Below, in pieces: positions 8,780 to 9,804 of a stretch of DNA of 64,000 bases; the first letter of the stretch is position 1, and each line of letters opens with the position of its first letter. Position numbers and translations under genes: made by a program. The stretch comes from Escherichia phage MiataMamis. The notes under the pieces were generated by a model. The model ran no database searches. It was not told the DNA's origin and saw only the letters and a list, made by a program, of their open reading frames with translations. The DNA is taken from sequence record PP925834.1. One strand, 5' to 3'.

Positions 8780-9043
8780 ATGGCAACAGAGTTAAAATTT
8801 GCATCAAACCGTAAAACTAAGAAGTATCTGTCCTCAGTAGCTCCAGGCACTGTGGTGATGTTTGTTGATGAACTTGGGGATGTGAATACAGCACTTGTTG
8901 TAAAATCACATCCTGCAAACATATATGTTGGGGTATTTGACCTGTTCAGAAAGGTGTTTGTAGAACTACCTCACAGTTTGGTTGTTACAGAAATGGATGC
9001 CTGCATAGAAATTCTTGGCGAAGTTATGGTGGAGGAACAATAA
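8780..9043 (+). CDS. small protein, paralog family member A (87 aa)
   Basis: GAGGAGG SD; shares the pattern M.T..F....K....GTVV...VK...FDL...LP...VTE.D..I.ILGE with the next three genes. Confidence 0.6.
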   Translation: MATELKFASNRKTKKYLSSVAPGTVVMFVDELGDVNTALVVKSHPANIYVGVFDLFRKVFVELPHSLVVTEMDACIEILGEVMVEEQ

Positions 9044-9306
9044 TGGCTACTAACATTGTATTCAATTCTAAGGTGAAGAACAAAAAGCGTGCAGACAGTT
9101 TTCCGTGTGGGACCGTGGTAAGTTGCGACGGAGACGGCATTCAAAACATAGTTATGATTGTCAAAACAGGAGAACATTGTGTGTGGGGGTTCGATTTAGA
9201 AAATAATGAGTTGTACGATCTGCCGCCAAACATGAAAGTTACAGAGCTTGACACCAAAATTACCATCCTTGGAGAGACAAGCTATTCAAAAGAAGGAGGA
9301 GAATAA
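9043..9306 (+). CDS. small protein, paralog family member B (87 aa)
   Basis: Stop/start overlap (TAATG); GGAGGA SD; paralogous to neighbours. Confidence 0.6.
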   Translation: MATNIVFNSKVKNKKRADSFPCGTVVSCDGDGIQNIVMIVKTGEHCVWGFDLENNELYDLPPNMKVTELDTKITILGETSYSKEGGE

Positions 9307-9569
9307 TGACCACAAAAATCACTATCGCAGAGCCGAAAGCTAACACTCAGCCTATCGAAAAGTTTAAGTGCGGTGAGGTGGTAACATTCACACCAGATAA
9401 TGAAGATGCTAAGATTTTCGCAATGGTCACAGCTGAGTGGATGTGTGACAACACCACACAAGTACTACGTTTCGATACCTACCTCACAGATGAGATCCGA
9501 AACGATAAGATCGTGACAGGTGTGGACACTGAAATTATTTTCTACAAGAGCTTTTTAGAGGGTTTCTGA
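9306..9569 (+). CDS. small protein, paralog family member C (87 aa)
   Basis: Stop/start overlap; SD present; paralogous to neighbours. Confidence 0.6.
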   Translation: MTTKITIAEPKANTQPIEKFKCGEVVTFTPDNEDAKIFAMVTAEWMCDNTTQVLRFDTYLTDEIRNDKIVTGVDTEIIFYKSFLEGF

Positions 9570-9570
9570 T

Positions 9571-9804
9571 ATGGCAAAAATTCGTAAATTATCCAGCAAT
9601 CAGGTTGTGAAAGACTTTGAATCTGGAGAGATTCTGTATGTTCGTGATGCAGATGACGAAGGTGAAGATCTTGTTATGTTGGTGGGGCACGCTGAGGACG
9701 GATGCATCCAAGCTGTTTTTCTTGAAACAGCTATGGTGCACTGGATAGAGCTGGACTTGAAAGCACGAAAACCTAAAGCAGAAATCCTGATTTACGAAGA
9801 TTAA
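9571..9804 (+). CDS. small protein, paralog family member D (77 aa, more diverged)
   Basis: Overlapping stop/start; weaker but recognisable similarity to A-C. Confidence 0.5.
   Translation: MAKIRKLSSNQVVKDFESGEILYVRDADDEGEDLVMLVGHAEDGCIQAVFLETAMVHWIELDLKARKPKAEILIYED

Follow-up and report, generated by a model that had tools for sequence, protein, structure and literature searches.

A tandem array of four diverged paralogous genes with a predicted small-barrel fold in the rV5-like phage MiataMamis

The genome of Escherichia phage MiataMamis (PP925834.1), a Vequintavirus (rV5-like E. coli myovirus), was analysed over a stretch of 64,000 nucleotides (nt), referred to below as the window. The open reading frame (ORF) list places four consecutive small genes, g1 to g4, at positions 8780-9804 on the + strand, as described by a first-pass annotation that a model had made from the sequence. 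Sequence comparison confirms that g1-g4 form one paralogous family, with similarity that is co-linear over the full length. This family expanded in tandem within the rV5-like lineage and evolves under two regimes, with a fast, swappable slot at the front of the array and a frozen pair at its rear. The preferred reading, to which a probability of about 0.45 is assigned, is that g1-g4 are a lineage-specific family of non-enzymatic small-barrel binders of host factors, encoded in a non-structural sigma70 operon.

Four small genes form one family

The genes g1 (8780-9043), g2 (9043-9306) and g3 (9306-9569) each encode 87 amino acids (aa), the approximate length first given for all four; g4 (9571-9804) is shorter, with 77 aa. 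The start of g2 overlaps the stop of g1, and that of g3 the stop of g2, in both cases as TAATG, and a gap of 1 nt separates g3 from g4. A Shine-Dalgarno site, GGAGG or GAGGG, lies 6-9 nt upstream of each start. Because of these junctions and sites, the translational coupling stated in the first-pass annotation is plausible, the gene arrangement itself being directly visible. All family members are acidic, with an isoelectric point (pI) of 4.2-5.7 (5.0 in g1); g4 is very acidic, with 17 aspartate and glutamate residues and a net charge of -8. The N-termini, judged by eye, are not hydrophobic. Positions 8000-10500 of the window are 97-98% identical to many Vequintavirus genomes, among them phiWec193, isim and WalterGehring/Bas51, and the four genes are labelled ‘hypothetical protein’ in every annotated Vequintavirus record looked at.

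BLASTP clearly identifies g1 and g2 as paralogues (39% identity, E=1e-12) and aligns neither g3 nor g4 to other array members. The latter two are remote members, at 13-23% identity, and are detected by profiles only. With a profile of g1, g2 and their relative gX from phage rV5, g3 is the top-ranked of the 164 window ORFs (E=8.5e-5), and g4 is recovered once g3-type sequences are added (E=2.7e-5). Run against 166 sequences, namely the 164 window ORFs and duplicate entries of g3 and g4, a profile of seven g1/g2-type sequences matches both directly, g3 with E=4.8e-7 (23.2 bits) and g4 with E=2.1e-4 (14.7 bits). They rank directly after g1/g2, and the next window ORF follows at E=0.024. Both scores exceed all those obtained from 2000 shuffles of each sequence, the maxima of which are 10.6 bits for g3 and 10.5 bits for g4, and hhalign assigns probabilities of 91% and 74%, respectively. 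The claim of a tandem array of paralogues is thus borne out by significant similarity, for g3 and g4 at the profile level only, and g4 is the least secure member of the family. The profile searches found no further member among the 164 ORFs.

The motifs thought to be common to the four proteins (GTVV, FDL, LP, VTE-D and ILGE) are fully present in g1 and g2 only; they are partial in g3 (GEVV, FD and VTGVD) and barely discernible in g4. Across the family, only M1, one glycine and one isoleucine are invariant. No DNA-level repeats were found between the g1-g4 paralogues, and the duplications behind the array are therefore old.

The PHROGs database divides these proteins into three unrelated families, with full-length matches (E 1e-41 to 1e-62) of g1 and g2 to phrog_10698, of g3 to phrog_12861 and of g4 to phrog_12046, all of ‘unknown function’ and comprising rV5 gp14-16 and orthologous proteins. 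The sole trace of relatives in the PHROGs search with g3 is a weak co-linear match to phrog_10698 (E=0.082). The profile searches described here join the three into one, giving a compact candidate set of five proteins: g1, g2, gX, g3 and g4. The paralogy seems to have been previously unremarked, as the main text of the rV5 paper (PMC3606486) contains no word starting with ‘paralog’ or ‘duplicat’.

Tandem expansion within the rV5-like lineage

The family has a very narrow distribution. With tblastn, every one of the proteins is confined to the same 117 Vequintavirus records. Wider searches, word-indexed over 5.8 billion proteins and by an exhaustive HMMER scan over 1.84 billion cluster representatives, add divergent Vequintavirus-like contigs, a gX-like gene (P0030) and a subfamily of 82-88 aa (P0031 and dozens of variants). 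The P0031 subfamily is carried on uncultured metagenomic contigs of 120-145 kb; because their neighbouring genes share 27-65% aa identity with the window counterparts, these contigs are treated here as a sister lineage.

The sister lineage (L008, L019, L021) always holds one copy, located between a DUF2201 gene and a phrog_6790 homologue. Three genes (gX, g3 and g4) are present in rV5, FV3, Pr121LW and AlexBoehm, and four in the window, phita32, EcoIv14a_Aya and the divergent contigs L013 and L015. The family therefore expanded in tandem within the rV5-like lineage, from one copy to three or four, so that the amplification first proposed for the array is retained as a lineage-specific event.

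Single genes also stand alone, a g3-like gene on L016 and a gX-like gene on L011, in different genomic contexts. In this third phage lineage, the gX-like (L011 1621-2052) and g3-like (L016 2525-2986) genes flank opposite sides of the same Cys-rich gene of 143-153 aa, and family members have thus been inserted independently around one spot beside it.

Several candidates were rejected as members. P0032 (408 aa), retrieved by the exhaustive scan, contains a four-fold repeat whose units each match weakly, at profile positions 19-64 only; like the pilin T-antigen match described below, it was judged to be a short-motif coincidence. Neither the 87-aa gene that adjoins DUF2201 in phage 4MG nor the small ORFs around it in CR3 and PhAPEC7 belong to the family. 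The source label ‘DUF1883’ (PF08980) on the sister-lineage member P0053 was also discarded, since hmmscan of P0053 and 42 other members gives no DUF1883 match at E<=10. Sixteen ‘Campylobacter phage’ records (host C. jejuni) in GenBank MG065644-MG065690 are E. coli-type Vequintavirus genomes, with 90-99% nt identity to window 8000-10500 and identical g3/g4 proteins; their host label looks like contamination or mislabelling.

A replaceable slot at the front of the array

A replaceable cassette at 8795-9294 on the + strand covers almost all of g1+g2. At the nucleotide level it does not resemble rV5 or FV3, while its flanks are 96-97.5% identical to rV5. In this slot, rV5 and FV3 hold the single gene gX, whose 85-aa product is ~40% identical to g1 and to g2. 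Among the 117 Vequintavirus records, the slot contains g1+g2 in 43 and gX in 74, and both states occur inside the species Vequintavirus murica, in Murica (g1+g2) and Pr121LW (gX). Because the slot differs between otherwise near-identical phages, natural isogenic-like pairs such as these two exist.

This organization resembles the phage accessory regions of Silas et al. (bioRxiv 10.1101/2023.04.06.535777), in which close relatives carry alternative gene contents between conserved flanks, here g1+g2 or gX. Under the operational definition, window 8795-9294 is such a region and g3/g4 are not; since the latter do not vary among the 117 records, the definition covers part of the array only, and none of the array members has a known counter-defence activity. 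The main text of Silas et al. does not name rV5-like phages (bioRxiv 10.1101/2023.04.06.535777).

A conserved pair at the rear

Evolutionary rates were compared between the window and the divergent lineage L013. The products of g1 and g2 share 58% and 70% aa identity with their L013 counterparts, with non-synonymous divergence (dN) of 0.31 and 0.29, and those of the neighbouring genes 36-82% (dN 0.13-0.60). The corresponding values are 97% (dN 0.020) for g3 and 95% (dN 0.022) for g4, by dN the most constrained genes of the locus; g3 is kept at at least 94% in all 117 Vequintavirus records. The differences from L013 are 31 synonymous and 4 non-synonymous in g3, and 18 and 4 in g4, an excess that rules out recent transfer alone as the cause of their conservation. 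With ratios of dN to synonymous divergence (dN/dS) of 0.02-0.04, both genes are under very strong purifying selection. The strong diversification described in the first-pass annotation is supported, the cassette swap at the front of the array included.

The proportion of synonymous differences (pS) to L013 is 0.57 in g3 and 0.37 in g4, below the ~0.8 of the flanks, which suggests that the g3/g4 block has also been exchanged, or has coalesced, more recently than its surroundings. In the distant lineage L016, the lone g3-like gene lies at a different position and its product is 83% identical to g3, against 38-40% for the Srd-like and DUF2201 proteins, indicating that this gene was transferred horizontally.

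The single copy of the sister lineage is the fastest-evolving gene of its locus, with a proportion of non-synonymous differences (pN) of 0.13-0.19 versus 0.014-0.11 for the flanking genes. Its pN/pS is ~0.4; that of the flanking genes is roughly 0.06-0.28 and mostly ~0.1. Variable sites concentrate in the predicted N-terminal hairpin and first barrel hairpin, and residues 45-68 are nearly fixed.

Searches for known domains and counter-defence relatives

The absence of a recognisable known domain, stated in the first-pass annotation, is upheld. Pfam, NCBIfam and PADLOC scans of g1-g4, P0030 and P0031 return sub-threshold noise only (aSelB_III, Kelch_HCF, BrnT_toxin, Lar_N, FosC and AcrF2). A PDB sequence-profile search with the first profile (A2) gives no chain at E<=10, and a larger profile (A6) only chance-level matches, to a pilin T-antigen (E=0.012, short hairpin motif) and to the Spt5 KOW structure 2do3 (E=0.67). 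The PDB and Pfam searches reveal no sequence or fold likeness to anti-defence proteins with solved structures (Tad1, Tad2, Acb2, Acr and Ocr-type mimics), and the resemblance to sponge or inhibitor families that had been proposed is not borne out by any of these four resources. A literature search on Vequintavirus anti-defence or transcriptomics found nothing relevant.

These results bear on a strict counter-defence array, in which every paralogue would be directed, as inhibitor or sponge, at a different bacterial immune system or at the signalling nucleotide of that system, and an arms race would explain the duplication with diversification. The accessory-region character of the front slot, the raised divergence at the protein level in g1, g2 and the sister-lineage copy, and the small size and acidity of proteins encoded in a non-structural operon with sigma70 promoters are consistent with it. 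However, the profile searches offer no known relative, the one AcrF2 match (E=0.11) concerns a single member, and no pocket residues are conserved family-wide. The dN/dS of g3/g4 is atypical for arms-race genes, and purifying selection on this pair does not suit a uniformly diversifying array. In this strict form, the explanation is rather unlikely; the anti-defence idea in general, a plausible hypothesis, applies more readily to the front half of the array than to the rear.

Predicted small-barrel fold

The AlphaFold2 model of g2, built from a 13-row family alignment, is all-beta with eight strands (predicted local distance difference test score (pLDDT) 78, predicted template modelling score (pTM) 0.64). 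It contains a five-stranded small barrel that superposes on solved SH3/Tudor-like members, and the family is predicted to adopt an SH3/Tudor/KOW-like small beta-barrel with an N-terminal beta-hairpin.

A BFVD search with the g2 model retrieves the family’s own members and many uncharacterised phage proteins of 60-90 aa. Neighbours in fold include N4 gp21, PaP3 ORF65 and proteins of the Kuravirus phages SU7, 172-1 and NJ01, with Foldseek TM scores of 0.5-0.7, and several phages carry two such proteins. They differ from the family in sequence, at 6-24% identity and with E no better than 1e-3 to 1e-2; no function is known for any of them, and the exhaustive HMMER search retrieves none. One BFVD entry, A0A385ITW0 (78 aa), was considered as a candidate g4 orthologue and rejected. 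The orthologue is A0A6B9XD35, which is absent from the 50 neighbours listed for the g2 model.

At the level of fold class, and from predicted models only, the family resembles KOW domains (Spt5/NusG), Tudor domains, the SH3-like region of ribosomal protein L2 and the N-domain of eIF5A/EF-P. It differs from these barrels in its extra N-terminal beta-hairpin, in forming stand-alone proteins of 77-88 aa and in lacking a significant sequence match. The likeness raises the alternative that the proteins, as KOW/Tudor-like mimics standing alone, attach to components of host transcription and translation, namely RNA polymerase, Rho, ribosomal protein S10 or the ribosome, and act together with the Srd-like factor in host shut-off. 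The Spt5 KOW structure 2do3 ranks second among the PDB profile matches, and its alignment alone spans most of a domain (50 residues, through an F-x-x-G-x-V-V motif); an Srd-like gene lies in the same operon, and the extreme conservation of g3/g4 would suit an invariant host target. Nevertheless, the 2do3 match is not significant, and Pfam KOW (PF00467) finds no match at E<=10 in 43 members. The RNA polymerase inhibitor phiEco32 gp79, a lead prompted by the small Kuravirus fold neighbours, was dropped, as it consists of four helices. A KOW mimic is accordingly judged unlikely.

Operon context and neighbouring genes

A predicted strong sigma70-type promoter at 6233-6261 on the + strand (TTGACA-17-TACGAT, with an extended -10 TG) lies in a divergent intergenic region and corresponds in position to rV5 P11. 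It presumably drives an Srd-like anti-sigma factor gene at the head of the operon, the DUF2201 gene, g1-g4 and the genes downstream, with no terminator-like site on the + strand before 13962. The divergent operon holds the MoxR ATPase, rIIA and rIIB. A second promoter-like site at 8652-8680 (TTGACA-17-GATACT, 10/12 matches) lies within the 3' end of the DUF2201 gene, 100 nt ahead of g1, and could allow separate transcription of the array. In rV5, a transcription unit of genes 11-26 was proposed from gene layout, and the late genes are 27-66 (PMC3606486). Of the earlier description as small early proteins, the non-structural sigma70-driven operon is supported; early or middle expression would be compatible with this context.

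The upstream neighbour of g1, at 7283-8764 on the + strand, encodes a DUF2201 metallopeptidase and VWA protein (Pfam E=4e-28 and 4e-11). This gene is labelled ‘HNH endonuclease’ in PHROG 1314 and many GenBank records and ‘anti-sigma factor’ in others, a propagated mis-annotation, and in rV5 (DQ832317) it is split by a frameshift into ORF12 and ORF13. A family member directly follows it in Vequintavirus, the L013 lineage and the sister lineage, and in L016 one lies ~2 kb upstream in the same gene cluster. Such proximity favours a role of the small proteins as accessory subunits, substrates or regulators of the neighbouring MoxR ATPase / DUF2201 VWA-metallopeptidase system. Yet DUF2201 homologues were found in 472 phage records and the family in only 117, and no member adjoins DUF2201 in 4MG, CR3 or PhAPEC7; the family is therefore not an obligate partner of DUF2201. 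No DUF2201 gene is present on L011, the 2.7-kb contig with the gX-like gene, and the adjacency may be synteny inherited among related phages. This role is considered improbable; like the KOW mimic, it is a weaker alternative to the small-barrel-binder account.

The downstream neighbour at 9821-10270 (149 aa) matches phrog_6790, ‘tail protein’. It lies within the sigma70/Srd operon, far from the morphogenesis genes, and the structural label is doubtful. This label, together with conservation of g3 and g4 resembling that of core genes, could point to virion or assembly components with a housekeeping role. On the other hand, the late morphogenesis unit does not include g1-g4, the virion proteins that the main text of PMC3606486 lists from mass spectrometry do not comprise gp14-16, and other Vequintavirinae genera that share the virion architecture lack the family. 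A virion role is thus unlikely, and of all the alternatives weighed here it receives hardly any credence.

Further features accompany the locus. Some sister-lineage phages carry, downstream in the same operon, a protein of 401-445 aa with a YadA_anchor (trimeric autotransporter anchor) domain (L019 8863-10200, L020 5265-6470). The 188-aa protein of the window (10515-11081) has two adjacent paralogues in the sister lineage (L008 6944-7507 and 7571-8125; L019 5937-7128), each ~27% identical to it, a second tandem duplication in the same operon. In L008 and L009, a TnpB-type gene at 2119-3258 (OrfB_IS605 / Cas12f1-like_TNB, 379 aa) occupies the divergent promoter region, between an opposite-strand 297-aa gene at the fucosyltransferase gene position and the Srd-like gene; it is absent from L019 and L021. 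Elsewhere in the window, seven tRNA genes (Pro, Met, Thr, Ser, Tyr, Arg) lie at 61434-62249 on the - strand. This cluster includes a 99-nt tRNA-like gene at 61679-61777, to which ARAGORN assigns a four-base anticodon (atcc) and which has an Rfam tRNA score of 37.5 bits.

Proposed function of the array

According to the small-barrel-binder account, the family would consist of acidic, cytoplasmic, all-beta proteins of ~9-10 kDa. A single ancestral gene, still present as one copy in the sister lineage, underwent tandem duplication into the three to four genes of Vequintavirus. These genes would be co-transcribed from the sigma70 promoter with the Srd-like anti-sigma factor gene, probably at early or middle times, and their products would bind host macromolecules stoichiometrically, with a specificity that differs from paralogue to paralogue. 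Whether it holds g1+g2 or gX, the front slot behaves as an accessory cassette that evolves fast and can be swapped, and that presumably tracks a variable or dispensable target. The genes g3 and g4, frozen by purifying selection and horizontally mobile, presumably bind invariant targets, as their conservation suggests.

No polar residue is conserved family-wide, which points to binders rather than enzymes, and the three invariant positions argue for a scaffold with divergent surfaces. The paralogy, the copy-number history, the dichotomy of rates, the operon context and the predicted fold class support this account; from them we infer the early timing, the binding mode and the existence of a host target.

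Several points weigh against the account. The fold derives from AlphaFold2 models built from shallow alignments. The g4 model, built from g4 orthologues only, reaches a pLDDT of only 68.5; its strand order is the same as in the g2 model. In BFVD, its only significant match is its own orthologue, with no g1/g2/gX entries, and 11 of its top 50 weak neighbours are also in the g2 list, so that the structural support for g4 as the same fold is weak. The front copies evolve fast, yet their pN/pS is below 1, and relaxed constraint may for this reason account for their rate. Nucleic acids and small ligands are further possible partners of small barrels, and subfamily-specific pockets may exist despite the lack of family-wide conserved residues. 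So far, nothing distinguishes the array from the other ORFan expansions that occur in the early regions of phages.

A bolder proposal is a new counter-defence or host-takeover class built on a stand-alone KOW/Tudor-like barrel, in which the hypervariable, swappable g1/g2/gX would act against strain-variable E. coli immune proteins and the ultra-conserved, spreading g3/g4 against an invariant host factor. It is offered tentatively, as a possibility with the odds clearly against it; if true, two evolutionary modes of one fold would lie side by side in a single operon.

Phages of the rV5-like group are widely used in biocontrol cocktails against O157 and enterotoxigenic E. coli (ETEC) and form part of the BASEL collection. 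Despite this use, the g1-g4 operon in these phages is entirely ‘hypothetical’. In conclusion, the array may prove to be one more lineage-specific ORFan expansion; should g3 and g4 instead turn out to bind a conserved host factor, a new target of host take-over could come to light through them.
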